A stretch of 64,000 nucleotides of DNA from Psammoneis japonica (lineage: Eukaryota), in the NCBI GenBank assembly GCA_008632985.1, contig QPGO01000071.1, positions 62,001 to 126,000 on the forward strand, given 5' to 3'. Both the position numbers and the translations under genes were made by a program. The notes under the pieces are model-generated. The model was not told where the DNA came from, searched no databases, and saw nothing but the letters and a program-made list of their open reading frames with translations. Of this stretch, positions 17,800 to 64,000 are shown piece after piece (within the stretch, counting starts at the first letter, position 1; every line of letters begins with the position of its first letter).

Positions 17800-20700
17800 G
17801 ACAGTTTTGCATGTGTCTGCCCGGTTGCCACAGCTGCTTCCCATGTCTCATGCATTGAAACCCTTGTGAATGTTGTGTGTTGTCAACCACACTGCTTCTT
17901 GTCTCCACCTGTGTGTGGCCTCTTTTGCTGACACAAGCAGGTGGTCTGTTTTGGGGTGTCCCATCAACAATGATTTCTCTGTTGTTGCTTTTGCTGGCTT
18001 GTTGCCTCCTCTCATTTACCCATCATGTTGTTTGACCCATGTGTGTGCCTTGCAGGAGGTTTGGGTGCACAAAAATTGTGGCTTTTGTGTCGTGGTGCAG
18101 AGAGGCCCAGCAGTTGTTGCACCCGCCCATTGTGATGATGCGCCAAGTGACTGACCTTGAGCAACTTGGAATGGAAAGCATCTCTGCAAATGGGGACATT
18201 TTGACAAATGTCAAAAAAATTTCATCTCAAACAACTGCATGCATGGGGGTGACTTTGTGAGACCAGCTCACAATGAAAAGTCTTTCAGCTCAGCCAATCT
18301 TCTTTTCAAGCCATCTTCCTCAACCTTCTTGTGTTAAAGAGCAATGGAGACATGGGTGTTCACTTGCATGTTGCAAGACATCACTCACTGGAAATTCAGA
18401 TTTGACATGTCCCATCTCTGCAATTAATCTGGAATGGGTGGTGGCAGGGTGGAAGCTCAGCTTGAAAATTTGTCGCTCCTGATGATGGCAGCATCAGCAT
18501 GAATTCGTTGTCAAAAATGCCAAAGTGCTGCTCTGCATTTTTGCTCTCCAGTCTACCAACTCTCTCCAAATTAATGACATCAAGGTAGAACCATGATTGC
18601 AGTTGCTTTGCTTGGGCATCAAAAGATTCCTTGGACCCAAGAAGCTGCTGCTCTGTGCACAGGAAAACCCAGGAACAGTGTGTGTCGTTTTCTTGAAGGC
18701 AGCTTTGAAAGCAGCCCCCCCCTGGCTGTCTCACTCTTGGTCACTTCCACACCAATTTTCTGCACTGCCACTGTCTTGCACTGCTGCAATTGGATCATTC
18801 ATTGACTTTCCCTCACTTTTCTGCGCCAGTGTGAAGTCAGAGGTGGCTGGAAATCTGGCTCTTGGTGGGTGGACACAGAATGGCACCATGTGATGTGGCA
18901 TCACAGGTGACTGAGCCAGTGCTTTCTTGCAAAACAAAAGTTCTGACACCAAACACAGCACCACAATGATCGCATCAGTGTGGCACAAGATTTGGGCTGG
19001 CTCCTGCAACAGCGCTGCAGTGGTGGCAGGTCTGTGCACTCATCCTGAGAAGCTTGCCTGCCACATCAGTTTGGAGCAAGTCCACTCTGTTAGAAGCCCT
19101 GTGCAGGCCTCTGCAAAATCCAGCACAAATTTTGACAGTGTTTGCATCATGCACATGGCAATGCACTCTCATGTTGATGTGCACACAGCATGCACTGCAC
19201 TGGTGTTGGAGCTCCCACGCACATGTTTGGTGTGTGGTTTTACTTTTTGCCAGCTCATGACCCACAAAAAACTCAATTGCTTGACTCATGTCATGCTGTG
19301 CCACACAAACATGACAAAAGAAACACAGCACTTTGTCTCTTGTCTTTGGTTTGATCCAGTGGATTGGTGGCAGCACAGGTGTGAAGAAGCACCCACCAGT
19401 GTTGACAGAGTTGACACACTGGTGCCTCATTGGGGAACAACTCTTGAGCTGCTCAGCGATGCAGTGCCTGACTGTTGGGCTGGAGCATTTGCAGCCACAG
19501 AGAGCACCATGCATGATTTGCATGAGCAAGAGTTTGTTTTCATCATGACATGGCAGTCTGATGGACATTCAAGAAAGTGGCAGAGATGCACTGCCCACTG
19601 CCACTGTTCCATGCACCTGGAGTCAGTTGCAGGTGATCTCTTTTTGAGTGCCTTCAATGCTTCACCACCTTTCACACAAGCAAGCTCAGAGATTTGCATG
19701 TCAAGCCATGCTGTGCAAATGACAACACAGCAAAGGCGCACATTGACTCAATCTTGATTGTGTGCTTTGATGGGTTCAGTGATTGGCTGAATGAAGCAGA
19801 AGGCAGGAGCAACATCACAAGTGCTTTTCTGCAAATTGCTGCCAAAAAGAATTTTTTCTTGAGAGGCAGTGGAATTGCCCCCATGTTTTGCATCCTGGAA
19901 GCAGCACAAAGGAGAGTGACAGGTCCTGCACTGACATGGGAAATCATGTGGGTGTGCTGCTGCCCTGCCAAATTGAGTTCAGTGACCCAGAGACTTGCAG
20001 CAAGAAGTCATTGCCCAGTGGGGTCTCAACCTGTGTTTTGTTGTGGTTGGGTGGAAAGATGGGAGCAACATGACAAGTGCTTTTCTGCAGAGTTGCTGCC
20101 AAAAAGATTTTTTTCTGGAGGCTGTGGAATTGTCCCCATGTTTTGCATCCTAGAAGCAGCAAAAAGGAGAATGATGGGTCTTGCAACATCAGAAATGTGG
20201 GTGTGTTGTTGCCCTGCCACATTGAGCTCAGCAACCCAGAGATTTGCAGCAAAAAGCCATTGTTGTCCAATGGAGTCAATCTGTGTTTTTTGTTGTGGTG
20301 GGGTGGAAAGACAGGAGCAACAGCACAAGTGCTTTTCTGCAGAGTTGCTGCAAAAAAATTCTTTCTGGAGGCAGTGGAATTGTCCCCATGTTTTGCATCC
20401 TGGAAGCAGCACAAAGGAGAATGATGGGTCCTGCAACATCAGAAATGTGGGTGTGTTGTTGCCCTGCCAAGAGTTGAGCTCAGCAACCCAGAGTCTTGCA
20501 GCAAGAAGCAATTGTCCAATGGGGTCAACCTGCATTTTGTTGTGGCAGGGTGGCTGTTGGTGTGTGCACTGCAGCACAGTGTGCATGTGACAGCTGTCTC
20601 GAGCTGAATGGGGTTCTCAAACATTTGGGCACTTTTCAAATTGAACCTGTTGGATTTGCTGCCCAGAACATGGCCACCACTGATGAACATCTGGCACATT

Positions 20701-21050
20701 TCAAGGGGATTGATTTAGTGCTTGAGGTTCAGAAAGCTGGGAGAGGCGGTTGAGAACAGAAGGCATGCAATGAGCAGAAGGAAGTGAGTCTTTGTGGAAT
20801 GTGCTCTCCAGCATCTGGTCACTCGCTCACTCTCCCGTTTTGTTGTTGTCAACACAGAGAAGACCTTTGGTGGCAGGGGGTCCATGAGAGGACATTTGTT
20901 ATTTTGTTCTGTTTCTGCAGACATGGCAGGTCCAGAATCATTCTCAGGGTTGCAGCCCAACATTGTGAGAGTTGATTCAGTCAATCCCATCAGCGATGAG
21001 CTTTTCCTGCAAGTCTGTTTCCTGGTGCTGCTGACAACAATGCTCGCTTG
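17800..21050. other. Hypermutated island 1 (TpA- and CpG-depleted, TpG/CpA-rich)
   Basis: Manual count gives about 11 TpA and under about 20 CpG in about 3.2 kb, while both are common in the flanking genes. Confidence 0.92.
19800..20550. repeat. Three diverged tandem copies of a ~255-bp unit inside island 1
   Basis: acaagtgcttttctgca near 19817, 20073 and 20325; each followed by ggaattg.ccccatgttttgcatcct.gaagcagca. Confidence 0.9.
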
Positions 21051-21815
21051 GAACAATTCAAGGAACTTGTAACAGTTAGAAAATTACCTCCGGCAGATGA
21101 GAGGGATCTCAACGAGCACATTCAAACCCTGGCCAATGACTGTTTGTCAAAATGGGGTAATCTACACGGAGTTGGACCGTTTCCTTCAGGAACTTCGTCA
21201 TTGGGAGCAACAAGGCGCCCTTGCAGAGTGCTTGAGTTGCTTGTCTGAGGATGCCAACGTCGACGAAGTTCAACGGTTATTAGAGGGATTTCGTGGCCAT
21301 GGTGTCATTGACTTGACACGTGCTAACGACATGGTTGATGGGGCGACAGGACTGCACGCCGTGAAATTATGAATGCCCGCAATGAAGCAGCACAGCGTGG
21401 TAACCCAGAAAGGGTGCCAGCCAGCAATTCAGGAGACTCTTCTGATAGTGAAACGGAACTGAGAAATTTGGTCTGACAATGCGAAGATAATAAATGGGCC
21501 GGAAGCTCTGCATTCTGCATTATAACTACGTAGTGAACGAACGAAAACGATTGAGTTCTTCAAGACAACTGAGTGGTACGACTACAGTTTTGTAGAGCTT
21601 TTTCCTAATGACGGTTGTATAAGGTGAAGGGGAAAGCAAAAATGCAGAGCAGGCTGTTCCCCAACCTCTACAATTTGATTATTTGCAATTGCCAATTGTC
21701 CCCACTCGGTAGATCCAAACAGGAGTCGTATTCAATACCCGTTGTGGCTCTTGGATTTATCGATGAATCTTGCTACTAAGGCGTTTCTTAATCAGCTTTT
21801 CTTGGGACAAAGTCA

Positions 21816-24800
21816 TCAACATTTCCGTCGCGTTCTCCGGAACTGCCGCTGACAACGTTTGAGTGAGCGAATATAGCGAATAAACAACAAGCACAAAAAA
21901 CCAAGCCCCTGTAGTATCAGTAGAGCTTGCCACTCATCCGCCTGGACCATTTCCAAGGCACCATTCGAATACATCGTCTCTTGGTCAATCACCGAACCAG
22001 GACGCTTGAGTCGACCGTGCCTTCCGGGCGCTATAGCGGTTGTGTAGTAGGGAAGCCACGATGAATTCTTTGTGGATACGGCAAAGTCGTACCATAGCGC
22101 CCGGTTTGTGTCTCTTGTGTCATTGTTTTCCTTGTAAATCCCGCGACTGTACATGTGGACGGGAGGGACCATACCAGTCAATTTCCCATAGTGTTGGTTC
22201 TCCTTTGTACGAGGAGTCTCTGGTGTTAACTTGGACCACGTAACTTCTGTGACGTTGCCATGTGGATCAACATGGATTCTTCGCATCACCTTTTGGCCCT
22301 TCTTACAATTGCCTCCAGAAAGAGTATGCTTGCTGTCTTGACATGGTACGAAATCGAACTGAAGCAACCTGATATCACCGATAATTGGAAATCTCTCGAC
22401 TCCAGTTACAGAGATATCTCCCGGTGTAAATTCTGAAAACGGACTACGGCCAAGAGCAATATTGACGGCGCTACCTACAAGGCAGGGTCCGGTAAGATAC
22501 AAATGTCCGAGTGTTAACACAGTCGATGTTTGAGGATCGGGGCAAAGATTGTTCATCAAATCTGGAAGGGTGTCGCGATTCAAGATCTGGCTGACTAGTC
22601 TCGACAAAGCAATTGCTAATGCTGGATGTCCGGGATAACTTGCAATCAAACCAGAAAGAAGACAGCTAGAACGGACGCCTTTACCTTCAATCCCGGCACT
22701 TTGATCAACAGATGTCAGCAACCCGATTTCGTCTTGCTGTAAAAGTCGCTCCAACTCCTCCTCTACACCAGGAAAATAGAGATCGTTGTCGACGTAAATA
22801 CCGCCATTGATGAGAAGCGACGCATATCGAAAAAGATCCGATTTAAACGCACCGGGTATCAGCGTGTCGTAGGCTTCCAGGACAACTGATGGGAAATTCT
22901 GGGCAAGAAACGATCGAGCAGTTTCGTTATCGAAGACCTTGTAATCAAAGCCATCTAGATTCTTCCATTTGTTCATCATGAGGTGCGTTTGCTGGTATGC
23001 TTTACCTGAACCATCAGGAATGGGATCCAATGAGTACCAGAACTGGATTATGACACGAGGAATCAATTTGGTGATACCGCCGTGGCGAGAGAGTGATGGC
23101 GCATTACTCACATTGACCGGAAATTCATGCCTATCCAAAGTATCTTTGGTTATTGTATTGGAATCGGTATTGTCACATGTAAACAAGTGTTCACAGGAAC
23201 AGGTGCAAGAATGTAATTGCGAGCACAACTTGCAATTGCCCAACCCCTTTGCTTTCAGGCAGCGCTGACATCCATACTCCCAACAGGGTACTTCAGGCAG
23301 CTCATCTTTTGAATAATTCCAATTTCCAGCTTTTTGAAAGCCAGCTTGGACGTAACCAGCATGATCTGTAGGGTCATTGACTTGCATCGCCTCATCGTAT
23401 AAAAGGGTACCGGCAAAATGAGACTCCAATGGTTTCGCTTTGGGTAGGACACTTTTGGCGATGGGCGATTCGAGAATCTTTTCATTTGGTTTCGCATACT
23501 CTCCAACTTGGGCTCGTTGAAAGAGTCGAGGGAACAGTCGCAACGCCTCTTGTGTTTTGTTCCCCGTCGGTATCCTTGACAGCGGTTTATGCAATGATGC
23601 GTGGTCCTTCCCGCAGTATCCCGTGGCCGTATAGTCAATTTGTAGGAGACCACGCCATCCTTCTAGATTTTTCTCGGCCTTGTGAAACACGTGCGTATCC
23701 TCAATCCATACGGTACCGGCATGTCCAAATAGGGCCTCTTGTTGCTGCGTAAAGATGTTCTGTTTTAGGTAATCCTCTGGCAGAACTTGAGATGCCATGG
23801 AGAGTGCATACTCTTCAATTAACTGTGTGTACCCTGGTACGCTCTTTTCAGTCGGATACGATGGTCCCATTACATTTTGAGTGTAAGGAATGTAAGTATG
23901 CGGTCCAAGCCTTGGATCGGTGGCATTCGTGAGGAAGACAAAGACTTTGACAGACCGAGCTGAATTAAAGTCCTTGTGCCAAGTATCAAATGAAAACTTT
24001 GTCGTATTTCCGTCTTCGCGTGCGACGTTCATAAAGACATCTACCGTCCGGATGACGGGCGGTGCGCCCAATAGGTCCTGGAGGACATCCAAAATAAAAG
24101 GATCATAAGCAATCTGCTGAACTCGAGCAATTTCAAGTCCTTGGTTCAAGTCATGCAACATGAAGGTACCGTAGTATTCCTTGTCGCTAGCCACTTGTGG
24201 TGTAAGTCCCTTCAAGGTCCATCCGTGCGCCATTTCTAAAAAGTCCTTGTCCTTTAGGTCGTTGGTCAAACCATCTAACCAATCCAAACTCATGGAACGA
24301 GGTAATACCGAAAGACCCTTTCCTCGTAACTCTTTGAGAGTCCTTTCTTTTTCAGCCTGAATGAGTTTCGTGTTTGGAAACAACGACTCCATTTGGTGAC
24401 TCTCAGCCATTGTGATTTTGGAAAAGTCGGACTTTCGCAAAAGATGTCCCATTTGTTGAACTGCCTCTGTTGCTGGCTTCATACTTCCCGCTCGGGTGGT
24501 CAGCAAATAGAGGAGGTTTCGGTTTTGGGCATGGTTGTTGCAAAACGGATGGTGTCCACCCAAAGCTTCCGTCACGAGCAACTGCTCGGCAAGCCAACAA
24601 GTATCTTTGTAACCCCAAAATTTGGTGTACCTAAATTGTAATGGTGGTGCTTTCCCTGGTGCACTCGGGTTGAGCATGCCTTTGCGATGTAAAGCGTCCA
24701 GCAAATCCGGATCGAATTCACACCGTGGTGGTTCCTTGTCGTTTCTCACTCTCGATTCGACAGAGCCAATGACAACAACAATGACAAGGACAGCTATCAT

Positions 24801-24845
24801 GTGCACAGCTTGGAGGCCGATAGACAACGTATTGAGTAGTTTCAT
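21816..24845 (-). CDS. PhyH-like dioxygenase + GT32 glycosyltransferase fusion, copy 2
   Basis: 1009 aa, collinear and highly similar to 14359-17385, including the 3' flank and upstream motifs. Confidence 0.85.
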   Translation of the reverse strand: MKLLNTLSIGLQAVHMIAVLVIVVVIGSVESRVRNDKEPPRCEFDPDLLDALHRKGMLNPSAPGKAPPLQFRYTKFWGYKDTCWLAEQLLVTEALGGHHPFCNNHAQNRNLLYLLTTRAGSMKPATEAVQQMGHLLRKSDFSKITMAESHQMESLFPNTKLIQAEKERTLKELRGKGLSVLPRSMSLDWLDGLTNDLKDKDFLEMAHGWTLKGLTPQVASDKEYYGTFMLHDLNQGLEIARVQQIAYDPFILDVLQDLLGAPPVIRTVDVFMNVAREDGNTTKFSFDTWHKDFNSARSVKVFVFLTNATDPRLGPHTYIPYTQNVMGPSYPTEKSVPGYTQLIEEYALSMASQVLPEDYLKQNIFTQQQEALFGHAGTVWIEDTHVFHKAEKNLEGWRGLLQIDYTATGYCGKDHASLHKPLSRIPTGNKTQEALRLFPRLFQRAQVGEYAKPNEKILESPIAKSVLPKAKPLESHFAGTLLYDEAMQVNDPTDHAGYVQAGFQKAGNWNYSKDELPEVPCWEYGCQRCLKAKGLGNCKLCSQLHSCTCSCEHLFTCDNTDSNTITKDTLDRHEFPVNVSNAPSLSRHGGITKLIPRVIIQFWYSLDPIPDGSGKAYQQTHLMMNKWKNLDGFDYKVFDNETARSFLAQNFPSVVLEAYDTLIPGAFKSDLFRYASLLINGGIYVDNDLYFPGVEEELERLLQQDEIGLLTSVDQSAGIEGKGVRSSCLLSGLIASYPGHPALAIALSRLVSQILNRDTLPDLMNNLCPDPQTSTVLTLGHLYLTGPCLVGSAVNIALGRSPFSEFTPGDISVTGVERFPIIGDIRLLQFDFVPCQDSKHTLSGGNCKKGQKVMRRIHVDPHGNVTEVTWSKLTPETPRTKENQHYGKLTGMVPPVHMYSRGIYKENNDTRDTNRALWYDFAVSTKNSSWLPYYTTAIAPGRHGRLKRPGSVIDQETMYSNGALEMVQADEWQALLILQGLGFLCLLFIRYIRSLKRCQRQFRRTRRKC

Positions 24846-26519: not shown

Positions 26520-26612
26520 ATTGTGTGTGTTTGACGCAATTAAGAATCTCTCTCATTACAATACTGTAGTTTCAAATGTATATCATTTTTTTATTGTTCG
26601 TTCCATGTCAAG

Positions 26613-49978: not shown

Positions 49979-50619
49979 TGGCGTATTCTAAAGGTAAAAC
50001 AAGCAAGAGAAAAATGCTTAAGATTGAAATTCCTCTAAAACATCAACAATTGTACCGCTTGAAGCCAAAGCACCGAAAATACAACAGATCAACTACTACG
50101 AGCGCCGTTGATGATAAAACCAAAGAGCTACCCACTACTTTCGAGCTGAATCGTCTAAAGGCTTCCTAACTTACATTGCTTCTTGTTTGAGAGTGAGGGT
50201 GTGTCGGCGGGACGAAAGGATGAATGGAGTGTCTTTTGTGTGTCTCGATTCGAGGACTGCAAGAATTGTGAGCGTTGAAATCAGTCGAGCGCACCAAGAC
50301 GTTGGGCAGAAGCGTTGGGCGCGGCCGTTGAGGCCGTTGAGCTTATGCTTCTATACATGAATGATACCCGTCGCATGGCCAAAAATCTTTATGATAGTAA
50401 TCATTATTGCATAGAACATGAAACATAATGTCGGAAGATTTCTTTACTTTGAACGGATACATGCATTGATTGTATGACGTGCAGACGCGCACCTCCGCAC
50501 AGAAATAAAAGCAAACGCCACGCGGGCGGGCGCGCGACACGCAACACAACATGTGTGTAGAGCAAGTGTAGAGTTCGTGTGCTCCCAACGTAGACGACTC
50601 TAGAGTTTTGTCACCCTGC

Positions 50620-51950
50620 GGTGCGTCTCCCAGCTAGCTAGAGATTGTGTTCAATGAGAGAAGAGATTGTTTTAGGTCAAATCGTAGTGACAGGCTTTGT
50701 CAGAGATGGCATGGATCATGCCACTGCCCACGAGACAGTGGTGGTTGTTCTGCGAAGTCATCCTCAAGCTTGTCAAAAATGTTCTCAGCTTTTTTTTGCA
50801 AAAGCTGCCATTCACAAAAGACTCAGACAGGCAAAACCCATCACGAGTGCCTTTGTCACATGTGAACTTGTTGGGGCAGAGCTGGGGTGGGTGGTGGGCT
50901 GGGACCCTTCGCCTCTCTGGCCAAATGTGTCTTTGTGACAGCACCCCCCCAACTTTTGGAGTGAAAAGTGGCACACAGTGTCATCAGAAGATTGCTCCAC
51001 ATGTGTGTGCATTTGGCATGCAAATGGCATGCTCTGCAGATGTGCACCTCTGCACAGAAGCACTGGGCACATGGTGCACAACATGCGCCGCTGCGCGCCA
51101 CATGCTGGAGTTTGCGTGCTCTCTCTCACACTCTCCAGGCTGGCTGGAGTTTGGCTGCCCTGCATCACATCTCCTGGCTGGCTGGACATTGTGTTCAACA
51201 ACAAAAGAGATTGTTTTGGCAGGTTAAAATCACAGTGACTGGCTTTGTCCAAGATGGCCAGGGTGTCATTGCGAGCGGTTCTGTGCATGAAAAATCGAGG
51301 AAGCACGAGCCAAAAAAGGGCAACGGCGCGCAACTCTTGTTGTGCAGCATTGTCAACATGTTGACAGTCACCAATTTTTGAGCTTGTCAAGACATTTTCA
51401 GTGTGTTTTTGCAAAGACTCAAAAGACTCTGACAGGTGAATCCTATCACAAGGGTCCACAGCTTGGGGCAGTGCTGGTGCTGGTGCTGGTGATGGGCCAG
51501 GAGGCACAAGTGGATGGACTGGAGCATTTTTCTCAATGTTGGAACTGTCATGGCAGCTTGTGCAGACTTTTTTGGAAAAAAATGATAAAGCCATCCTTGC
51601 CATTTGTGCAATGACGGAAGTGCACATGTTGGCACCAGACTTTGACAGAACATTTTGTTTGTGCATGTGTGGTTGGAAGGAAAAGCTGGTTGAAATTCTT
51701 TGCAGTCATGGCATTGATACCGGGAACCAGGGTGAGTGAGTCAGAAGGGGGAAGGGGCTGATGCAATCGCCAAATGGCATTAAGTCAGACACAACACTGA
51801 GCAGCGGCAACAGGTGATTGACCAGGGCCCTGGCCTTGTCCCTGTTTCAAGTAGTCGTTCTCCACAGGCCTGCAATGGTTGTCACCATCTCACCATGACA
51901 TGACTTTCAAGGATGCTGTCATTTAACAGTTTGGGTAAAATGAGGTGTGC
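50620..51950. other. Hypermutated island 4 with a diverged internal direct repeat
   Basis: TpA nearly absent from 50700 to 51700; attgtgttcaa..aagagattgtttt at about 50644 and 51188; agcttgtcaa...aaaagactc.gacagg at about 50767 and 51381. Confidence 0.88.
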
Positions 51951-52074
51951 ATTTTGTTGTAAATGAAAACGATTTCCTAGGGATTATCTGTTCCCTGCCA
52001 AAAACAAGATTGTATTCTAACATCTTCTCAGCATCACCGGATCCTCATCGTGAATGAGTCTGTGTCACTCTCTT

Positions 52075-53689
52075 CTAATCCTTCAAGGCGGGAATGCAAT
52101 TGTTGGGGTGTTGCTGTCCATGGAGACCCTTCAATTTGTAATCACGAATGTTTTCAATTGTAGTGTTCACGATGGCGTCAACTGCCTCCTGAGTAAAAAA
52201 TGCCTGATGCGCCGTCAGAACTACCTTGTTGTCGCCAAGCAACGCCACAAGATCGGGATCCTTGACGCTTCGTGCCGACCAGTCCTGAAAGAAGTATTCG
52301 GCTTCATTTTCGTAAACGTCCATGCCTACGCCGCCAATGATTCCCGTCCGAAGTCCCTTCAACAGCGCCTTGGTATCAACAAGTCCACCACGGCTCGTGT
52401 TGATGAGAATGACGCCCTTCTTTAGTTTCGTGAGAGCCTCGTCGTTGATGGTGTGGCGAGTCGGGGGAATAAGAGGCATCATGAGAAAGAGAACATCGGA
52501 CTGAGCAAAAATCTCGTCTTTGGAGACGTACGTGGCGCCCTTTTGTTTGAGTTCTTCATTCTCAAACACATCATAACACAAGAGTTTGGCTCCAAAGCCC
52601 AGTACAATGTTGCACAGCAAGGCGCCGATCTTTCCTGTTCCCATCACTCCGACTGTCTTGCCGTGAATATCCATGCCCATGAGGCCCGAGTCAAGGGTAA
52701 AGTTGGCCATCTTGACCCTATTGTTGGCCTTGGTAATCTTGCGGTTCACCGCCATGAGAAGCGAAATGCCCATTTCCGCCACGGCATAGGGCGAATAGGC
52801 CGGAACACGGGCAATCGTCATGCCGTAGGCACGAGCAGCCTTGGTATCGACACGATCAAAGCCGGCACACCGCATGGCGACAAGCTTGACGCCAAGGTGC
52901 GAAAGACGCTGCAGCACCTCGGCGTTGGCTGAATCGTTGACGAAAAGACAAACCGCATCGTAGCCGGCAGCAAAGGTGGCGGACTGTTCCGATAGACGGT
53001 CGGTGGTAAAGTCCATAACGATTTGAAACTCTCCATCGTTTTCTTCGTTGAAGGCTTTGATGGCTGGTTTGAAGCCTTCTGTTACCCAACTGGTAGCATC
53101 AAAACACATGACGCGACAAACAGAAGCATCATCGCTGTCGCTCCCGCTGGTATGTTGTCCCTTGACTTGAGAAAGGAGACCGCGGAGAGACTTGGAGCCC
53201 GTCCTCAACTCGGTTGCAAGAGTTTGCATAAATTGTAAGCAAACGCTGGTTCGGTCGAAATGAGACTTCGAAGGTCCTCTCCCTCCAAGAGCCAACCTTG
53301 GTGTCACCGACGGCAGAGACTGTGGCAAACGCCGTAGATCCTTCAATAATGGTGTGCAGGAGTCCCGTGATGCGTCCTCTGCCCTGAATCGTATCCACAA
53401 CCACAGACAAGTCGCGAATCTCCTCCGACGTGGCCATGCTTTTGCCTGCAAAGCTTTTTCGCCGATCCTGGAATGTCTCTCCCTCGGCACTCATCTTGGT
53501 ACGCTGTAGCTTACCAGATTCCAAAAGAATGAGCTGCAACACTTCTTCGCCTTCTCTTTGCAACATATGGCCGTCGGGTACCTCGGCCGAGACCATTTTG
53601 GAAGCAAGAGCCTCCATCATACTATCCGGCGCATCGTGGAACCAGCGGGAGGCCTTGAGCAACTTGATGGCTTCGCTATTCGTGCTCAT
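52075..53689 (-). CDS. D-lactate (D-2-hydroxyacid) dehydrogenase with N-terminal cyclic-nucleotide-binding-like domain (frameshifted)
   Basis: RCAGFDRVD, VPAYSPYAVAE, GVMGTGKIG, INTSRGGLVD, DVYENE and TAHQAF; N-terminal WF...LQREGE..LILLESGKL...FATVSA. Confidence 0.88.
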
Positions 53690-54299
53690 CTTGACTTGCT
53701 GCGTTTGATGAAAGACGACCAAACGTTATGAATGGGCAGACAAGAACGAAGAACACGACGTATACGTGCGAGAAGAAGTTCACTACCTGCCTGCTGGTAG
53801 TGAGAATAATCTTCTCGAAGGACAAAATGTGAGAGAAAGATTCGCCACGTCATGAAAAAAAAAAATACACCCGGTATTTTAAATTAGTATTAAGTACGTA
53901 TAAACGAATATGAACCATGCGATCAAAAGGATTAAAAATCGAATCAAGAATCGTGGCGAACGCTTGCCATGGCGGTGGTGCAATAAGATAATGAGAAACT
54001 TTAGAGGTGATAGAGCGCTGATTTGTGGATCGAAAACAAGCGAGAGAAGGAAACGAAAAGAAATCTGCTCGCTTTTGAAGCATGACGGTCGCAAGCAAAC
54101 GAAACAACCCGCCAAAATCAAATCCGCGACCGCGAGTCCCGTGACGCGATGTGAGTCCACAAACCGCGGAATGCAATGCGCGATCACAAAAAGAAAATGA
54201 AACGCGGATGATGGAAACGTGCTTCGCAAACTGCTTCCATAAAAAAATGATTGTGAGCTGAACGGCAGTCCGGACGAAAAACGATTCAAATCTCAAAAG

Positions 54300-55860
54300 A
54301 TGTATTCACCACGTTTTAGCTCGATGGAAAGCATCGGCACTGGTTTGACAGCATACAACAAAAAGCTGGCACAAAAGCGCGTCAAGCGAGGCGAGTGCAC
54401 CAAGTGTGGCACAAAAACTCACAAGGTGAATTTCATTGGAATCAAGACAGCCCTCACTATAGAGGGACAGGCATTATATGGAAAGTGTTTAATATGCCAT
54501 CCTCTGTCACCAGAGGATTACTCTCGAGGGTTTCCCGCGAGTGCAACACCGCCCATGACAAGCGAATAGTCCAAAAGAAGGCGTGGCTCGATTCCGATAG
54601 GGGCCGTCCATTATGCTGCTTCGTAATGCGTCCGAAAGACACCGAGCAAAAGGTTAAAAGTGACACAACTAGAACTTCTACAAGACCGCCTGCAAGTAAC
54701 AACAATAGGAATTCGGCGAAGCGACTGAAGCGAGGAGAGCCCACTGCCGATAAGCGTGACACAAATACAAAGGAAAAGGCGGAAGCGCTTCTCGTACAAG
54801 GACAGGACTTTCACGAAAACCGCTTGTCATATAGCTGCGAGAATAGCTCCTCATATAATCACATGTCTCAGCAGATGATTTCTTCGACTGTTGGAAACTC
54901 CTCCGCGCAAGCAGATACAAAAGGCGTGTATTCTGACGTAACCGACAAAGCTGATAACCGAAGCATTGCGCTGCCACCAATGGAAGCAGAAGGTTACCCC
55001 GCAAGAAACATAAAATCACAACGGCACCTGCAAACCGTGAAACGACGCGGGAAGTACGCTAGCCACCCCCCGGATCAACCATCGATTCAACCACTTATCG
55101 AGAAATCGACACAAGACTGTTCAAGAGTCATGTCGCCAACCGACGCAGACAAAAAGAAAGACAAGCTTAGCCTGGCACAGAGGCGAATAAATCGAGGGGA
55201 GTGCCCTACATGTGGAAGAAAAACGCACAGAGAAAACTTTTTCGGACGGAAACAGCGCTTAGTGTGAAGGGACAAGTCTTGTATGGGAGGTGTTTGATAT
55301 GCAACCCCGTGCAATCGGTTTCACGTCCACCGAACAGCCACGGTGTCCCACAAAGTCTAGAGGTTATAAGAAGGCTGCATGATATTGATTCAGATACATT
55401 GGTGTCCGAGATCACCCTTGACTGCCAACTTGTTCAGGGCGCGAGGCATAGTGGCAGTCGGCCGCCAAGAGAAAATAGAATTGATGGTGACAACAATCGA
55501 GACATTGACTTCTTCCAGAAGAGAGACAACAAACTTCACCCTAGACCAATGATGTTTGCAGAAGAAAGTGACGGTGATTGGCGTCCGGCTAGCAGGCGGA
55601 CTCCCCAGCCCCCGCAAAGTCACACGAGAATTTACCTGTGAGCCACGCTATTGTTCCGATCCGTCCCACGCGGGCTTGCCTCCGACGTGTGACTATGGGT
55701 GATACCAAATGGGTACCAGGACAAAGTTGTCGGTTTGCTTTCGTCTGAATTTCAATAGGATGAAGATATTCCGATGAAACCGGAGTATCTTACAAAAATT
55801 AGAGATCACCTTTCGTTGTTTACGCGAATCAACTTTGTGAGGATGACGCTTCGTTCAATG
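54300..55860 (+). CDS. Protein with two CxxCG.KTH...G.CLIC.P Zn-finger-like modules (frameshifted; 3' end uncertain)
   Basis: RGECTKCGTKTH..ALTIEGQALYGKCLICHP and RGECPTCGRKTH..ALSVKGQVLYGRCLICNP. Confidence 0.7.
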
Positions 55861-55899
55861 ATGCCCCTACTGGTAAAGGTCTCGTTGGGGAGACAGGAA

Positions 55900-56559
55900 G
55901 GGGCGTCCGCTATCCATTGTTAGTGCCAGAGGGCCTGCTTGGCAGAGAAGCAAGTGGCGATCAATGTAATCGACGAATGACGTTCAAGCCAGTAACGGAG
56001 CTGCGAGCTGCGACAATCTCATCATCTGCATAGAGAATAGTCCATCGGCTCGGAGCTTTATCCTCCTTGCCCCGTACAGTGTATTGAGAGTCATTTCCTT
56101 TTCATCCCACAAGAGGTTGTCACCATCAATGTCAATCGTGGGCAAAAATGGAAGCAATTCGACAACCAAGGACATTTCTCCTCTTGCTAGATAAAAAGTG
56201 ATAATTTCTTTGTTGGGCATGTAGCCACCAAACAAGCTTCCAACAATCGGTAAATTTGCCACGGCCGAACTAAACACAAGCTCAAATTGTCCATCCAAGA
56301 GGCTTGGGTCAATTTTATTACGTGGATCCTCTTCCAAACGTTCCAGCATTCAAATAACACTCGGAGCTTTCACAGAACGCTCTGTTGCACATTGGCGAAG
56401 CAGAGCGGAGGGGTCTTCTTCGGGAGTCGAGTCAACAGCCTTGCGTGCTGACATACGCTTTAAAGGCGACATGTTATTGAATGAGAAGCCCATAACACTT
56501 GATGTTAACTGGAAAAGGTGGGAAGCAACCGCCAGAAGTATCGTCGTCGTGTAACTCAT
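55900..56559 (-). CDS. Probable plastid protein, PAP/fibrillin-like (frameshifted; 3' end approximate)
   Basis: Signal peptide ending VMG-F followed by a basic transit-like segment; LERLEE...LLDGQFELVFSS motif. Confidence 0.55.
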
Positions 56560-57746
56560 GATGGATGTGAAAAAATTGAAAAAATGAATGGGTGAATGGG
56601 CGAATCTTTCGGTCGCGCGTCAGAATCGCGCGGGCAATTTCATTCTCCCTCCAACGTTCGTACTTCGTGCGTCGATGTCGGAACCGACCATGACGCAACT
56701 GCCAAACCCAAAACAGCTCGCCGGTCTAAACGATTTTTTGTACCTGAACAATGTTGTGTTACATCATGTTTCATCAATTCATGAGCCTTGTAATCTCAGA
56801 AGCATCATCTATATCCTCTGAACCTGATCCTATTTGAAAGACCTTTGACGAAAGCGATTGGGAGTAGGCACAGCGAACCGCGACACCAGCGCCGTTGCAC
56901 CTCTTGCCACACAGCAAGTCACTCAAGACGAAACGAAATCAGGACATTCGACATCCATGGATCTAACTAAGAATCGATTTCAACTATCTTGGGGACGAGA
57001 GTATTCTTTTTTTGTTTCTCGACGAGAACTTGTGCGATTGTCACGTCCCTCAAACTATGTCGGACTGCAAGTCAGCACAAACTACATGGGGTACGTTTTG
57101 AAATAGAATGTTGTTATATCGCATGCGAGCAACCCGTCCGTTGTGTGCTAGAATCTTTTAAAGATTCTCGGCCGAAAGGCTGCCCCATGCCACCGGAAAT
57201 CAATTCGTGATGCCATAGAAAATCCCTGTGTTGTTTTTGCTTTTGAGAAACTCTGTGTTTCGTGGATTTCATCATTTGCAACTGAGATTCGCTGGCATAC
57301 TCACAATACATTCTCTCTTTTCAGTAAAGCTGTACTCTGAATGCCTTCATTGTTTAATTCTCTCCGCCTTATGCACACAATATCAAGAGCAAAATGCCTC
57401 TACTCGGACCGGATGATGTCGGAGAAATAGAGTTCATACCCAGATGAAACTAGTCCAGTTCCCTCAGGCAACGGTTTCGTTTTATAAGATGTAGTTACTG
57501 CAGTGAAGTGGTGAATTGAGGAACTAACTCTACTCTAGCTACAGTAGACTAAGAGTAAGCCGCTACGCAAAGGAGTTTAGCACCGGGTACTAGTAAGGGC
57601 AAGCGGCCAGACGGTGATACTCGGAAAGTGGATGGCTGGTGTCAACAACAAGTTCTCATTTTGGATTTCCCATTTCAACACACGAGAGCGAAGCAATACA
57701 CATCATCCACCATCGTTCCATCTTTGAAGAAAGAACATCAATCATC

Positions 57747-57998
57747 ATGACACGCTGCGAGAACTGCAACAAGCATCTGGAGTCCAAGCGAGAGATTGTG
57801 AGCCACTTGGAGAAGGAGCACAACGTTCATGTACGAATGGGCGAAGATTCGCATTTGGTGTACTGCAACGATTGCCACAAGTACCTGGGCAGAAAGGCAA
57901 CGTGTTTCAATGATACAAAGCGGGTCTTGGAGAAGCATCTCGCCAAGTGCCATGACGTCCAGATGCACGAAGGTACCATGGAATTCGAAGAGCAGTAG
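57747..57998 (+). CDS. 83-aa protein with two C2H2-like zinc fingers
   Basis: CENC..HLEKEH and CNDC..HLAKCH. Confidence 0.75.
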   Translation: MTRCENCNKHLESKREIVSHLEKEHNVHVRMGEDSHLVYCNDCHKYLGRKATCFNDTKRVLEKHLAKCHDVQMHEGTMEFEEQ

Positions 57999-58485
57999 GT
58001 TTTGATTGGAGGGGGGTTGCGATTTAAAGAGACGAATCGGAACACGACCAAGAGCTGCTAGATGAAGAGGTAATTCATGTAAATGCACATAGCTCTGACT
58101 TATAAAATCCTCGTCATGTGAGTTTGACTCGTTTCGCATACAGGAAAGATCAATGGCGGTCTTCAACTGTTGCGAAAAAACTTTGGTTCATACTCTCGTC
58201 ATTCGTGATGATGGTGATAAATAGACTGGGACGTAAGAGTTGTGCAAAAATCGTGTAGAGGACATGTCTATCGATTCGGTTTGTACTGTACTATCTCAAA
58301 CGAGCTTCGCCGAAATGAAGATAAATCTTCTCTTACAAAAATCTGTGCACCCCGATGGTTCCTCTTTTTCGTTCTTTCGCTGCAACCGCTCTAGTACGGG
58401 ACCCTTCAACGCAAAATACTGAACAGAACACTGGGAAACGGCATCTATCCCGGGAACTTTCAATCTCTGTCATCGGTCGGTGGCA

Positions 58486-58821
58486 TTAATTCTTCTCGGT
58501 CTTCTGCTCTTTGCTGCCCATCGACATCTTGTTTGCTTTCTTCTTTAGCTTCTCAGTTTGTTCCATAAAATACGGCGTCAAATGACCGAGACCAGCGAAA
58601 TATAATCCCACAACGAAAAATGATCCCATTGCACCGACACCAATGTATAGATCTTTGTCACTCCCAGTGTTAACTTCTTCCTTGATTCCTCGAGGCGCAC
58701 GCTGTGATGCACCCGTCGACCCGAAGCGGCATTGAAGCATCCGACCATTCCTTGACATCGGCGCTTGACAAAGCGGAGCTGTACTCCGCACTGTCGTTCT
58801 CAATACCACTTGTCCAATCAT
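58486..58821 (-). CDS. Small single-TM protein with mitochondrial-type presequence
   Basis: Arg-rich acid-free N-terminus, TM LYIGVGAMGSFFVVGLYFAG, Lys-rich tail. Confidence 0.55.
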   Translation of the reverse strand: MIGQVVLRTTVRSTAPLCQAPMSRNGRMLQCRFGSTGASQRAPRGIKEEVNTGSDKDLYIGVGAMGSFFVVGLYFAGLGHLTPYFMEQTEKLKKKANKMSMGSKEQKTEKN

Positions 58822-58898
58822 TGCAATGAAGTGCTTAACGACTGTTCTGCCTCTCGCTGTGATGAAGTTGCGAGGGACCACACCAACATGCTGCGACT

Positions 58899-59105
58899 TG
58901 GGGGAAGACTCCAGCCAGCTGCTGGCTGAAAAAAGTCTGCTCGTCAGTGCGTTTGGGGGTTTTGCCAGTACAATTTTTATGTACGCAAAAGATGTCGAGT
59001 CTGTCCAGCGCTCGCCAAACCCCCTAACGCACAGATTGACAGACTTTATCAGTACAATTTCTACACAAGATTCTTCAGCCAGCAGCTGGCTGGAGACTTC
59101 CCCCA
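58899..59105. mobile_element. 207-bp MITE-like element with 32-bp TIRs and 4-bp TSD (GACT)
   Basis: TGGGGGAAGACTCCAGCCAGCTGCTGGCTGAA (58899-58930) matches the reverse complement of 59074-59105 with one mismatch; GACT at 58895-58898 and 59106-59109. Confidence 0.85.
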
Positions 59106-59109
59106 GACT

Positions 59110-61080
59110 GACGACTGACCAATTTTTGCTGAATTGCCAGCGCGCGCGAGAAAAGGGCCAACCACGTCATCGCATGCCCGCGATGCCACTACAGACCATC
59201 CACATGCCATGACATTGAACCAGTCGACAGCACACAGAAGCCGGCTGCGGTGTTGGCCCAACAGCCACCATCGGCAGTGTCAGGCCTCATCACAAACCAA
59301 ACTGCTTCAGCGCCTGATTTTGTTCTCCTCCTTGCAGCACTCACCCAAAATTGATCTCTCTCTGAGAGGCTCTGCTGATGCTTTTTCCAACCAGTGCGCC
59401 AGTCTTGCTGTGCGCTGCCATGCGCTCTTTTTTTGCTGTGTTGGAGAGAAGTTTGTGGACCTTCCATCTGGTCAGTGCATGAATTTCTGCCACATGGGTC
59501 ATGCCCCCTTGTTTGCACTTCCCAGCATTTCATCATGAGCGAGTCAGGCGCGCGCAAACATTGTTCTCTGGAGGGCAGTGTGAGAGGCAGCCATTGTGTC
59601 ACTCTCTGGACCATGTAGAAGAAACATTTCAGTCACTTTCATTTCATTTGTTTGGCATTGCCATGCATGGACACCATGTCTCTGGTGTGTGACAGCAAGC
59701 ACTTGCTTTCTGCGCAGCCCATGGGGGTGTCCTCTGCCAAAAAAGTGTTTGCTGTTGTTGTGCTGGCTGCTGTCCTCACGCAAGCAGCCCCTCCATTGAT
59801 GCTCCTTGTTGGCCATCTTGGCAGTCTCTTGTGTGTTCGTTTTAATGTTTCAACATCCTTTTCCACCCAAGTGAGTCACAACCTGGCCACACAGTGGCGC
59901 CACCTGGCTGTGTGCATGAAAGCTGAAATGTTTCACATCTCTGGCAGATGTGCCCAAGCAACCACATGAATGAGCATGTGCGAATGACAACAGACAATTT
60001 GTGCACCTCTGCCCAACTGCCACCACACTGGGCTTTGCTCATCACATTTCACAATTTGCAGCTCAGGTTCTTCCACACCACCTGCTTCTTTCTCAATGTT
60101 GACCAAGAGATTGTCTCAAATGACTGGCAGGCAAAGGGAGAAAGAGAGAGGCACATGGTGCCAAAAAAGGAGCAGCTGGAGTCTGCAGGCAGGATGAAAA
60201 AAAAGAGCTTGACAAGGACATCTGGCTTTGACCTTCTTGAAAGCAGTCTTGAGTGTGCAAGACCAGCTCATTGCTCATTTCAGGAGGAGATCATCTCCTC
60301 CTGTCGGGTGTGTGTTGTGACAATTGTCTTTTTGGAAACCCTGGCATCATTGCAACTGTCAAAACAACTTTGAGAGAGAGAGAGAGAGAGAGAAATGCCA
60401 GCACAGGTCTGCCCAACAAGAAAGTGGTGCCAAAGCTGTTTTGTGAAATCATGTTCTGGCATCTTCCACCAAGGGAAAATTGTCACATGGTCGTGTCTGA
60501 TCTCAGCTGACCGGCGCCCTGGCACAAAATGTCAAATGGGGCAAGCAGTGCCAGAGAGAGTGCCAGAGCTTCAGCTTCTCAAGTTCCTCAGCAAGAAGGC
60601 TTTCTGCCAGGGCCTGCAAGTTGGGGTGAGGCACAAAAGCTGAGACAAGACTTCATCACCAGGGTGCTGGGAACCCTGTCCTGGAACATTTTTGTGAGAT
60701 GTTTCCCAACAGCAGCATTGGAAGAGCAGACTTTGATTGGCAACAATGTGAAAGACATGTGCATCACATGCAACATGTTGCTGTTGTTGCATGCGCCACA
60801 TGTTTTTACTCCAAAGCAAGATGAAGGGACTGCCTGTCACACCTCCCTGTGTGCTGAGCAAGGGCTGAAAGTTGCATCTCTGTTGGAGCAGCACCCAATT
60901 GTCTTCCCTCCCCCCACACCCTCAATTCAACCACCCTCTCATCACACAATTCATCATTTGCCATTGTGTTGCAGGCAGTCTTTCGAATCAACAATCAACT
61001 GTAAATGTGCAGATGACAGACAATTTCAAGACCAAAGATGTCCCTGAAAACTGGCCTGCCAACTGAGGAAGAATGGCTTC
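59110..61080. other. Hypermutated island 5
   Basis: Very few TpA and CpG over about 1.9 kb; TpG/CpA-rich; includes a (GA)n run at about 60372-60393. Confidence 0.9.
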
Positions 61081-61218
61081 TTCTAGCAGAATTAGTCTTC
61101 TTTCTAGCTAGTGGAGACTACGTGCCATGATCTTGCCAATTAAAATTATGATTGCATTTCAAAAAGTAAGGCAGGCCTAAAAAGCTGATGGGCAACAATG
61201 GCACACTCTAGCTAGGAC

Positions 61219-61526
61219 CTTGCTTGTGCCACAGACCGTGCAGTGTCACGCTTACGAAGCGTGCTGTGCTCACCGGAAAAGAAAGCTCTAGAGTCTAGTC
61301 GAAAGGGTTCCTCAGTTCTTGTGTGTTTTTATAGCTACTTGTTAGGGCCCTAGTAGAAGATTCTACAACTGTCTTGCTTGTGCCACAGACCGTGCAGTAT
61401 CACGCTTACGAAGCGTGCTGTGCTCACCGGAAAAGAAAGCTCTAGAGTCTAGTCGAAAGGGTTCCTCAGTTCTTGTGTGTTTTCATAGCTACTTGTTAGG
61501 GCCCTAGTAGAAGATTCTAGAACTGT
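61219..61526. repeat. Two-copy 154-bp tandem direct repeat with 3 differences
   Basis: cttgcttgtgccacagaccgtgcagt starts at 61219 and 61373. Confidence 0.95.
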
Positions 61527-61620
61527 CCTCGAATAGACTACCGGAGTCTCGGTGATTCAACCGCTCCCACTTTTCTCTTTGAAGTTCTGCGAGCCTTGCG
61601 CATAATATGTGTTTAGATCT

Positions 61621-62181
61621 CTATGCGTCGTGCTTGACAGCCCTCCAATAAGGTTCTCTTCTTGAGTTCGAAATCTTGGTGGTGTATGATCGTTTAAATC
61701 TCATAGGAGCTCCCTCCCCTGATTTGACATTGCCATCGATAAACACCTTTTCCTTTTTCTTTTCTGGTTGATCAACTCTTTCCGCTTTTTCTTCCTTTCC
61801 TTCGTCCTTTGCAATTTTTCTCAAAATGTTACAGATATAAAGGTACACTCCGGCGCTCGTCATTGTGATCATTATGGCTAGGCCTGCCTGCCAATCGCCA
61901 AAATCTTCTTCTGGCGGAGGCAGTGTTGCGACGTCACTACTGAGTGGTCGTGCATGCAGAGGCACCACGCGTCGTCGTTGTTGTTGTGAGAGCAGACGAC
62001 TCGATGATCCCGTCATGCTAAAGGATCGTACTTGCGACCTCAGCAACGGTGCGCTCCTGACAGCTGCTTGTTGCATCGATGGCATACAGAGTGCTCGTAT
62101 CTGTGGTGTCGTCGTCATTCTTGCACCCATCATAACGCGAACTCGTCCGGACGCCAATTTTGTGACTGCGTTTCGAAACAT
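61621..62181 (-). CDS. Single-TM protein with long mitochondrial-type presequence
   Basis: MFRNAVTKLASGRVR...RSFS; TM LAIMITMTSAGVYLYICNIL; charged tail. Confidence 0.65.
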   Translation of the reverse strand: MFRNAVTKLASGRVRVMMGARMTTTPQIRALCMPSMQQAAVRSAPLLRSQVRSFSMTGSSSRLLSQQQRRRVVPLHARPLSSDVATLPPPEEDFGDWQAGLAIMITMTSAGVYLYICNILRKIAKDEGKEEKAERVDQPEKKKEKVFIDGNVKSGEGAPMRFKRSYTTKISNSRREPYWRAVKHDA

Positions 62182-62399
62182 AGCGTAAGCTGCTTCTTAT
62201 ATCTATCTATCGAGAGGTCTGTATTATCCGTGTTGCAAAACCTAGTTGATATATCGTTGATGCTGCGCATATGCTGATTTATTTCGTGTTTTTTATGCCT
62301 TGACAGATGTTGCGAGAAAGCTGGGTTCGCAAATGCGGCCATCATCTTGAGTTTCTGTGCGCGAAACAGATGCCGTCAACCAGCTGTGTTCTTCAGCGA

Positions 62400-64000
62400 A
62401 CCCAAGGGTGTCACAGTGACATCGGAGTTGAAGGAGCCACGTCACGGCGAACTTCTCAAAAATCGAATACTTCGATTAGATTCTGACTGCATGTACCATG
62501 TACGACACATGCTCCACTGACTAGAGCCAGGCAGCAGAGCACTTGCTGCTTGTGCTGGCACAGGAGCACAGGGCCCATTACAACCCTGTGCCACCTTAGC
62601 TACTCTGCTGGCAGCTTCTATATAAAGAGCTGCTCTCTCATGAGAGTCAAGAGAGCTGGCGCCAGACTGCAGCAAAGCCTCTCTGCACAGCCATGTGCGC
62701 TCATCTCAGGGCTCTCTGCTCTTGCTGGCACAACAGCTCATTCCCAAATGAGGTCATGAAGTTGCAATGAGTGAGTAGATTCAAAAATGTCACATCAGAA
62801 ATGACAAACTCCATGCTGGTGTGTGCCACACAGCACAACACAAAAAAAGAGCTCCTTGGTCCTCGAGCACAGCACTCACCCCCCCCCCCCCCCCCGGCCA
62901 AGACAAATGCACAAAGGGCACATCATCACATTGCGCCAACTTGTCCTTGGTGTCCTGCTTCTTCCACAACTTCATCTGTGCCCCCCCTTGTGTGAGCAGA
63001 CTGGCGGGCTGCGGCACAGATTTTCTGTTTTTGCCGCCACAAACAAGCGTCCTTCATGCTCTTTTTTGCACCACTGTCCAATTGTGCACAGCAGCCAGAG
63101 TCATGTGCAAGGGTCAAGTGCAGTGTGCTTTCATCCCAGGTGCAAAAACAATGCACAATCTGTGCAGATGTCAGATGCCATGTCTGTCCTTCTTCTGTTG
63201 TGCCATGCATTTTGTGCGAGCAATCATGGCTGCTGGCTTTCTCCCCAATTTTTTTGTTTTGCTTCTTTTCTCAGGTTTGTTTCTTGTTTTGTGAGGTGCT
63301 GCCAGCTGTCACTCTCATTGCTTGGATCTGATGTCAATGCTGCATCAAGCCAAATGCCAAGCACTGATCATCATCATCTGACATTGGAGCACATGCTTTC
63401 AGACTGTTCACATGACTTGTTCATTTTGTTGCCACCATTGCAATGTGGCTCACTTTTTTTCATGCACAAAAACACCTTTGTTGCTTCCCATCCATCCATG
63501 CTGCAAAAAGCATTTCAGCATGAGTGCAAGTGTGAGCTGTTTTGGTTGGCACAGCAAAGCCAATCACAGAGAGAGCTCAAGATTCTGGCAACTAAGTTGA
63601 TGAGGAAACGGGTGCAGATGATGAAATGGAGGCAAAGCCCTCACAACACCTTTCACAATTCAGCATTGGTGCCATCATGCAGTGGGAAAACATTGATGCT
63701 CCATGCCGCTGCAACAAAGCCATGTGTCTGCTTGTCCTGGATTGCAGGAAGGGACCCAAGCGATTCTCATCTTGATGAGTTCTTTGCTTTGACTCCATTT
63801 GATCCTTCTGCAGAAGATGCCCGCAATGAAATCTTGTCTTGCATTGCTTGGGAAAGAGGTGACAGAGAGCTGCAGAGGTTTGTTTGATTTAAGGAAAATG
63901 AAGCTGACTTTGAGGAGGTTGGCTTGGCAGGTGGCTGACAAGAAGCCAACACAATCAAGCAGTGCTTCTTGTGGATGAATCAAATGTGGCCCCATGCAAC
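62400..64000. other. Hypermutated island 6 (runs off the window)
   Basis: TpA and CpG nearly absent after about 62800; poly-C at about 62879-62895; Tyr-free Cys/His-rich ORFs. Confidence 0.9.

Follow-up and report, generated by a model that had tools for sequence, protein, structure and literature searches.

Islands without TpA in a diatom contig

The stretch analysed here, hereafter the window, comprises 64,000 nucleotides of the diatom Psammoneis japonica (contig QPGO01000071.1 of assembly GCA_008632985.1, positions 62,001 to 126,000 of the forward strand; all coordinates below are those of the window). Its background open reading frames (ORFs) code for common eukaryotic proteins and include matches to frataxin, PP2C/kinase, PCIF1-WW, RCC1, a MOT1 molybdate transporter, 2-hydroxyacid dehydrogenase and two DXD glycosyltransferases. 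Interspersed with them are six islands in which the dinucleotide TpA (TA) has almost vanished and in which CpG (CG), outside one segment of 2 kb, is strongly depleted, with TpG and CpA in excess. The origin of this signature is the subject of the present analysis.

Islands were called with a two-state hidden Markov model of TA+CG density across the window. The calls total 15,472 bp (24.2% of the window), or 16,714 bp (26%) if a TA-free stretch that keeps its CpGs is included. A reading made earlier from the sequence alone, without database searches, had described six discrete islands covering about a quarter of the window, and this description holds. Island 1 (17793–21044) lies between two unconverted tandem glycosyltransferase paralogs and contains 11 TA where 125 are expected, exactly the figure that had been estimated as about 11, along with 18 CG against 179 expected and 767 TG+CA against 483 expected. 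Island 2 (32508–33340) has observed/expected counts of 2/32 for TA and 15/46 for CG, and TA is already scarce from about 32281. Island 3 (34649–42851) is composite, with 29 TA observed against 313 expected across its three parts, and its call is split by a TA-free, CpG-normal stretch at 39897–41138. The corresponding counts are 6/48 and 21/68 in island 4 (50686–51923), 4/70 and 19/100 in island 5 (59273–61083; TA-free from about 59191), and 3/53 and 14/76 in island 6 (62624–64000), which exceeds the window end. Most of the boundaries proposed from the sequence alone stand, including starts at 32.3 and 59.1 kb for islands 2 and 5, which match the onset of the TA-poor zones; minor corrections place the start of island 6 at 62624 rather than 62.4 kb and the end of island 3 at 42851. 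A 59-N scaffold gap at 37578–37636 falls inside island 3, so the real length and content of this island are incompletely known.

All islands together contain 55 TA where about 644 are expected. Within islands the observed/expected ratios are 0.03–0.08 for TA, 0.10–0.31 for CG (the CpG-kept segment excepted) and 1.69–2.00 for TG/CA, compared with 0.52–0.74 for TA and 0.88–1.03 for CG in the background; over the entire window they are 0.45 for TpA and 1.33–1.35 for TpG/CpA. Relative to background density, the Poisson tail probabilities of the deficits range from 6e-12 to 3e-54 per island for TA and from 1e-7 to 2e-68 for CG, again except for the CpG-kept segment (P = 0.08). Counts of TA per 200 bp are bimodal rather than continuous, with modes at 0–1 and 7 and a trough at 3, and the borders are sharp at a resolution of about 100 bp. 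No similarity between islands was found by blastn, tblastx or purine/pyrimidine-coded 28-mers, in agreement with the earlier proposal that the signature was not inherited from one repeat family. Islands are nearly neutral in GC content (0.48–0.50, compared with 0.46–0.48 outside), as had also been anticipated: in each of them the shortfall of TA+CG is balanced by the surplus of TG+CA (276/284, 61/62, 386/368, 85/100, 120/118, 89/98, 147/131 and 112/110 in the eight island segments).

The islands recur in contigs assembled separately from a public DNA run, X1, which may share its sample with the assembly and so does not represent a separate organism. X1 contigs with a k-mer depth of about 52–64 cover 30 of the 30 bins of 44001–64000 and bridge island borders. 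One contig of 2922 bp spans island 4 with 17 differing letters, and the contigs that cross the right-hand border of island 5 and the left-hand border of island 6 have one differing letter each. An artefact particular to this assembly is thereby excluded. A sequencing or assembly error, for example miscalling at modified bases, might be suspected from the scaffold gap within island 3, but the agreement of the independently assembled contigs (1–17 differences), together with the indels and transversions carried by the island pseudogene copy described below, makes this the least credible of the explanations considered here.

Conversion of resident sequence

The clearest record of what happened in the islands is a pseudogene fragment in island 3 (36483–37014, minus strand), which corresponds to the C-terminal part and 3' flank of a member of a diatom gene family. 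It is 79% identical to 44616–45143 and 78% identical to 42999–43346, in the region of two intact, unconverted paralogs (42999–45587, minus strand; ORFs 43014–44018 and 44811–45587). These two paralogs are 89% identical to each other across 1031 bp, with observed/expected ratios of 0.60–0.61 for TA and 1.13 for CG. The family is without a Pfam domain and has 30 homologs, the best match being 57–60% identical; the three homologs that carry a species name are all from diatoms (Attheya, Extubocellulus and Thalassiosira). Islands are absent around seven metagenome loci of this family, a sample (24 kb) too small to weigh.

A three-way alignment of the island copy and the two background paralogs was used to assign changes to branches. 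The island branch received 50 changes, 45 of which are transitions (A>G 11, T>C 10, C>T 11, G>A 13), compared with 6 and 18 changes on the background branches. Nearly every TA common to both intact copies has been converted in the island (12 of 13; CA 7, TG 5), as have 17 of 20 common CGs, now TG or CA, while the control dinucleotides were retained in most cases (TG 12/14, CA 12/13, GC 12/13). Of the 21 A>G or T>C changes assigned to the island copy, 14 fall at TpA. The consequences are visible in the encoded protein: the motif QY.I.YQ.QL, present in 19 of 22 homologs and in both background copies, reads QHCIKCLEQL in the island, an Arg codon, CGA, has become TGA, and the reading frame is broken. 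Outgroups have Tyr and Arg where the pseudogene has His, Cys or a stop. The 22 homologs thus set the direction of change, from TA and CG to TG and CA. The stop and a frameshift leave no sign of selection on the pseudogene.

Independent changes at the same sites are found in a tandem repeat of about 250 bp × 3 in island 1 (19800–20553; 3.0 copies and 85% by Tandem Repeats Finder). Among its 49 pyrimidine–purine columns, 5 are TG in one copy and CA in another, compared with 2 double transitions in 160 columns of other classes (Fisher p = 0.0085), and one further pattern, TA/TG/TG, is present in a single column. The occurrence of TG and CA at one position among tandem copies indicates that the same ancestral site was resolved independently after duplication.

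A third comparison comes from a segment of island 3 (39391–41390) that has lost TA (7/77 observed/expected, P = 1e-24) and kept CpG (95/110, P = 0.08). The only period-3 signal in the islands lies around it, at 39.3–41.7 kb, and no convincing terminal repeats were found flanking it; in all probability the segment was inserted into island 3 at a later date. Inside it lies a bacterial-type ORF of 108 amino acids (40378–40704, plus strand), a member of a small-protein family (WDPIG...DEYxxYVP) for which there is no Pfam or NCBIfam model. A word-based homolog search missed relatives of this ORF (there 40378–40701), which phmmer found: 21 homologs at E ≤ 1e-3, four of these at E ≤ 1e-10, with the closest relatives at 36–48% identity. 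Of 374 candidate stretches in genomes of bacteria, 258 were confirmed as belonging to the family, and the 80 matches listed are mostly from Bacteroidota, at 26–42% identity; in IMG/VR it appears at seven weak loci only. This distribution suggests DNA acquired horizontally. At two columns where 16 of 16 and 15 of 16 homologs have Tyr (DEYxxYVP), the island ORF has His (DEHRDHVP); it contains zero Tyr where the homologs have 1–8. Members of the family, found in Bacteroidota and other bacteria (loci L015–L094), are about 90 amino acids long and follow the pattern ILxxDWDPIG ... DEYxxYVPxVLRLL; one protein of 2368 amino acids (P0031) has 14 stretches matching the family.

The remaining island sequence can be compared with the background through its composition. 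When background TA and CG were switched in silico at random to TG or CA, the 2-, 3- and 4-mer spectra of the islands correlated with those of the converted background at 0.97, 0.96 and 0.95, compared with 0.73, 0.72 and 0.70 for the raw background. This bears on the proposal that the islands have a native or selected composition, either as foreign DNA that already avoided TA and CG or through avoidance of nuclease sites. The ORF of a mostly bacterial family and the sharp borders would fit such an origin, but conversion reached both a fragment of a host gene and conserved Tyr codons once they were in place, the pseudogene is interrupted by a stop and a frameshift, and the island spectra match those of converted host background, so that we regard a native composition as extremely improbable. 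The island signature is mutation in place: the polarised comparisons and the tandem copies record change after arrival on resident sequence, which bears out the suggestion of the sequence-only reading that the signature was imposed rather than inherited, location or chromatin state being the candidate cause named there.

Nor does the mutation appear to be general. In four RNA-supported introns (607 nt) the observed/expected ratio is 0.57 for TA and 1.05 for CG, and in the background outside long ORFs it is 0.64 and 1.01. An ordinary, neutral decay, driven by a mutation bias of the whole genome and showing only in sequence free of selection, could appeal to the fact that TA in the background is already reduced (0.52–0.64), with TG/CA at 1.2. 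However, introns and non-coding sequence keep TA at 0.57–0.64 and CG at 1.0, the TA distribution is bimodal with sharp borders, and synonymous TA and CG are kept in both background paralogs of the pseudogene; we consider this explanation highly improbable. The normal composition of introns and non-coding background, taken with the bimodality of TA, indicates that the decay is targeted and not genome-wide.

Strand symmetry, sequence context and independence from duplication

Within island windows of 150–600 bp (25–108 windows), the counts of TG and CA are binomial, with var(z) of 0.88–1.07. Each site was thus hit on one strand or the other independently of its neighbours, and patches of one strand are missing. 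Whether a TA survives is strongly influenced by the flanking bases (R, purine; Y, pyrimidine): relative to expectation, 1 of 199 RTAY sites remains (0.5%), compared with 29 of 98 YTAR sites (30%) and 7–8% of RTAR and YTAY. The tetranucleotide TTAA is enriched 7.3-fold among surviving TAs, and 19 of the 55 residual island TAs are NTAG. Regeneration of TA from CA or TG was modelled at 21–25% in every flank class, and given this uniform expectation, the flank dependence of TA survival is a property of the process itself.

These context preferences are relevant to an ADAR-like route, in which double-stranded RNA (dsRNA) would be hyper-edited and the edited copies then reverse transcribed and integrated. 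Such editing would yield A>G changes with a 5' U/T neighbour on both strands, as found here. ADAR favours UAG triplets, with a 3' G, but it is this context that survives best in the islands (NTAG 19/55; YTAR 30%). Strand-specific patches are missing, no reverse transcriptase domain was detected in 83 island ORFs, the near-total loss of TA exceeds partial editing, and one target includes the 3' flank of a gene. We conclude that this route is very unlikely.

Repeated sequences in the window provide a test of dependence on duplication. The glycosyltransferase paralogs that flank island 1 (14359–17385 and 21816–24845, both on the minus strand; 1008 and 1009 amino acids, with DXD motifs) are 85.5% identical across 3056 bp at an offset of 7457 bp, and their TA and CG are normal. 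An element of about 200 bp (58902–59100) resembling a miniature inverted-repeat transposable element (MITE), with terminal inverted repeats of about 30 nt, abuts the left edge of island 5; it is unconverted, although its X1 k-mer depth, from 3,600 (bin mean) to 31,000, compares with about 55 for single-copy sequence. A Tyr-rich repetitive gene (561-amino-acid ORF, 48293–49978, minus strand), 700 bp from island 4, is likewise unconverted. Over most island bins, by comparison, X1 k-mer depth is 52–77, equal to that of the flanks. Unconverted paralogs of 85–89% identity and an unconverted high-copy MITE indicate that the process is not triggered by duplication and is not repeat-induced point mutation (RIP). 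The conversion is strand-symmetric and duplication-independent, with RTAY preferred to YTAR.

A RIP-like process could nevertheless be imagined in which a RID-related DNMT4 enzyme deaminates cytosines in duplicated DNA. RID-related DNMT4 is reported from 31 of 60 diatom species, with its function given as unknown (PMC9998398), CpG>TpG transitions are present, and islands 3 and 1 contain a duplicated gene fragment and tandem repeats, respectively. Against it stand the unconverted duplicates just described (paralog pairs at 85.5% over 3056 bp and 89% over 1031 bp, the MITE-like element and the Tyr-rich gene) and the single-copy depth of most island bins, equal to that of the flanks. Moreover, a cytosine methyltransferase is unable to make A>G changes, and TpA is destroyed here, not created. 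We consider such a process unlikely.

Separate loss of TpA and CpG

While TA is uniformly low among island segments (observed/expected 0.03–0.08), CpG ranges from 0.10 to 0.93. At several borders the TA-poor zone reaches 80–230 bp past the CpG-poor zone; it starts earlier by about 230 bp in island 2 and by 80–210 bp in island 5. Since there is also a 2-kb segment that has lost its TAs and kept its CpGs, TpA loss and CpG loss are separable. The shared TpA/CpG-free signature described from the sequence alone thus applies everywhere in its TpA part, but its CpG part fails in this segment.

Differences between the window and X1 point to the relative timing of the two losses. We classified 40 of 173 such differences, 14 in island 4 and 26 in the background. 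In island 4, 8 of the 14 exchange CG with TG or CA, in both directions, and one exchanges TA with TG; in the background, 4 of the 26 listed are of the CpG type (p = 0.011). The island 4 contig carries these 14 differences in 1238 bp, compared with 3 in 1682 bp of flank. Among surviving island CpGs, GCGC is over-represented 4.4-fold. We read these patterns as a rapid, saturating conversion of TpA, after which CpG decays more slowly and is still decaying; the CpG-kept segment would on this view be the younger insert.

Deamination of 5-methylcytosine drives CpG decay in vertebrate genomes and in methylated transposons. The CpG loss observed here resembles it in that CpG passes to TpG or CpA, with the deficit balanced by TG/CA, in that its extent varies between islands, and in that differences cluster at CpG and survivors are enriched in G+C-flanked CpG. 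We infer that the CpG loss is driven by methylation of cytosines in silenced DNA; such methylation cannot explain the loss of TpA. The presence of DNMT4 in diatoms leaves room for an enzymatic route to the CpG half, but spontaneous deamination of 5-methylcytosine is the simpler reading.

Content of the islands and their surroundings

The islands contain little that is recognizable. Among 83 stop-to-stop island ORFs of at least 90 amino acids, none has a credible Pfam match, the two matches at E 0.016 and 0.031 being noise; 18 of these ORFs lie in island 1, with zero matches. No period-3 signal was found in the islands outside 39.3–41.7 kb. Host genes converted in the same way were used to train a codon model of modest power, in which the true frame scores above 8 and wins in 41% of test windows. 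It marks 10 of 94 island windows, among them the pseudogene, which served as positive control. A weak coding-like signal is present in island 2 at 32508–33100 (plus strand), where an ORF at 32405–33049 has no homolog by word-based search. None of three island ORFs tried has a relative in IMG/VR, and the window yields no Rfam match.

Several features of the surroundings deserve mention. In the Tyr-rich ORF near island 4, a hydrophobic leader at the N terminus precedes YEGKG and YEYAKGKG repeats (Gly-Lys-Tyr-Glu) that extend over hundreds of residues. These repeats account for a local TA observed/expected ratio of 1.6 and a strong strand skew. The ORF has no Pfam match and may encode a secreted structural or adhesive protein. 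The MOT1-type molybdate transporter (30352–32093, minus strand) is divided between two overlapping ORFs in different frames (30352–31464 and 31191–32093), which points either to an intron or to a frameshift. A tandem repeat of 154 bp × 2 (61219–61527), 98% identical and normal in TA and CG, follows island 5 on its right at a distance of about 140 bp, and at 10759–11315 ORFs matching DUF7640 and PT repeat contain tandem repeats of 51 and 107 nt in their coding sequence. Contigs of a second run, X2, labelled 'DNA?', skip four GT..AG introns of 78–234 nt at 46431–47070 and 57089–57324, and X2 therefore behaves as a transcriptome. Its cover is zero in bins inside islands 4–6 and at 48.0–50.7 kb, and is not usable as expression evidence.

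Interpretation

Directed conversion of TA and CG to TG and CA took place in the islands. We favour, with a probability of roughly 0.7, the explanation that a TpA hypermutation of the kind described in the chlorarachniophyte Bigelowiella natans acted in this diatom, with methylation-type CpG decay on top. The islands are non-genic blocks between normal genes, in which remains of decayed genes and one or more genes of bacterial type lie among much unrecognizable sequence. Within sharp borders, TpA was turned nearly completely into TpG or CpA by A>G change on either strand, in a process that acts on both strands of duplex DNA, one site at a time, and prefers RTAY to YTAR. The change of CpG to TpG or CpA is a second, separate process within the TpA-free zones, which we read as slower and continuing. 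The chemistry of the TpA changes would be that of an adenine deaminase, their trigger silencing or foreignness, and their role one of defence.

Several observations weigh against this explanation. The direction of change is directly evident for about 1.4 kb of 16.7 kb, and for the remainder it rests on composition. A foreign origin is supported for a single ORF, and one target is a host gene fragment; none of the 83 island ORFs has a Pfam domain and the three compared with IMG/VR are all without relatives there. The raised density of differences seen in island 4 is absent from islands 5 and 6, with one letter each. Finally, the B. natans preprint describes no CpG component and the B. natans targets retain many TpAs, so that the two processes are equated by inference.

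A broader possibility, which we offer tentatively and consider somewhat more likely to be wrong than right, is that a dedicated enzyme edits adenine at TpA on duplex DNA, most readily at RTAY, is common to diatoms and chlorarachniophytes as distant SAR lineages, and leaves a heritable mark of genome defence. Such an enzyme would quickly and irreversibly scramble DNA that had just been acquired or had been silenced, be it of bacterial or viral origin or a decayed duplicate. Cytosine methylation would later add a slower CpG decay, so that the CpG content of an island would date its arrival. Since TAA and TAG would be missing from every one of the six frames, long open frames could also accumulate in the islands.

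Found in a diatom, a saturated footprint would mean that the process is not peculiar to one species, and a comparison of lineages with and without islands could lead to the enzyme, for which the strong preference of RTAY over YTAR provides a constraint on any candidate deaminase. The uncoupling of TpA and CpG loss offers a means of ordering insertion, editing and methylation in time. In practical terms, GC-neutral islands score wrongly on RIP indices, and standard annotation thereby overlooks a quarter of the window.

Comparison with known systems

Restriction by APOBEC and ADAR proteins in animals likewise leaves a context-specific transition footprint of deamination directed against invading nucleic acid. 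Those enzymes act on single-stranded DNA or dsRNA and produce strand-biased clusters in TC/WRC or UAG-type contexts, whereas the footprint described here is strand-symmetric, specific to TpA and strongest at RTAY. RIP in ascomycetes is similar in being a region-limited, near-saturating transition hypermutation that follows a dinucleotide rule and inactivates DNA. It is triggered by duplication (roughly at least 400 bp and at least 80% identity), mutates all copies, and consists of C>T changes only, mostly at CpA, which create TpA. In the window, by contrast, duplicates of 85–89% identity and a high-copy MITE are spared, 21 of the 45 transitions assigned to the island pseudogene are A>G or T>C, and TpA is erased. 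Hypermutation of repeats at TpCpG, with CpG as a target, has been reported in Microbotryum/Pucciniomycotina (PMC3318451).

In a full-text literature search, TpA-directed hypermutation was found only in a 2026 preprint on B. natans, and none in diatoms. According to that preprint (Mettrop et al., bioRxiv 10.64898/2026.01.13.699255), 231 of 302 new mutations in mutation-accumulation lines fell in two integrated viral regions, at about 6e-7 mutations per site per generation, with the de novo rate raised about 1000-fold; 230 of the 231 are A>G or T>C, and all 230 occur at TpA. The targets reported there are silent integrated DNA of nucleocytoplasmic large DNA viruses (NCLDV) and virophages, and its authors put forward a deaminase similar to ADAT2 which would edit DNA and so defend the genome against foreign sequence.

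The diatom islands share with B. natans the A>G and T>C changes at TpA, giving TpG or CpA according to strand, and both products are found here (TA to CA 7, to TG 5; binomial counts). In both, the changes are restricted to discrete regions of an otherwise normal nuclear genome, as far as the window extends here. Foreign sequence is the target in B. natans and, to judge from the one ORF of a mainly bacterial family, may be among the targets here. On the other hand, B. natans is a chlorarachniophyte (Rhizaria) and P. japonica a diatom (Stramenopila); the NCLDV region is given a Rho of 0.45 in the preprint, compared with a saturated TpA observed/expected ratio of 0.03–0.08 here; CpG is lost here as well, while the term 'CpG' occurs 0 times in the preprint, in which diatoms are not mentioned either; and the islands yielded no viral or transposon domain, one of their targets being a host gene fragment. 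The TpA half of the diatom signature matches that of B. natans on three of six compared features, and by this analogy it is most likely the same kind of process. The TpA half is thus already known from B. natans; what is new is its occurrence in a second, distant algal lineage, where it is saturated and overlaid by CpG decay.

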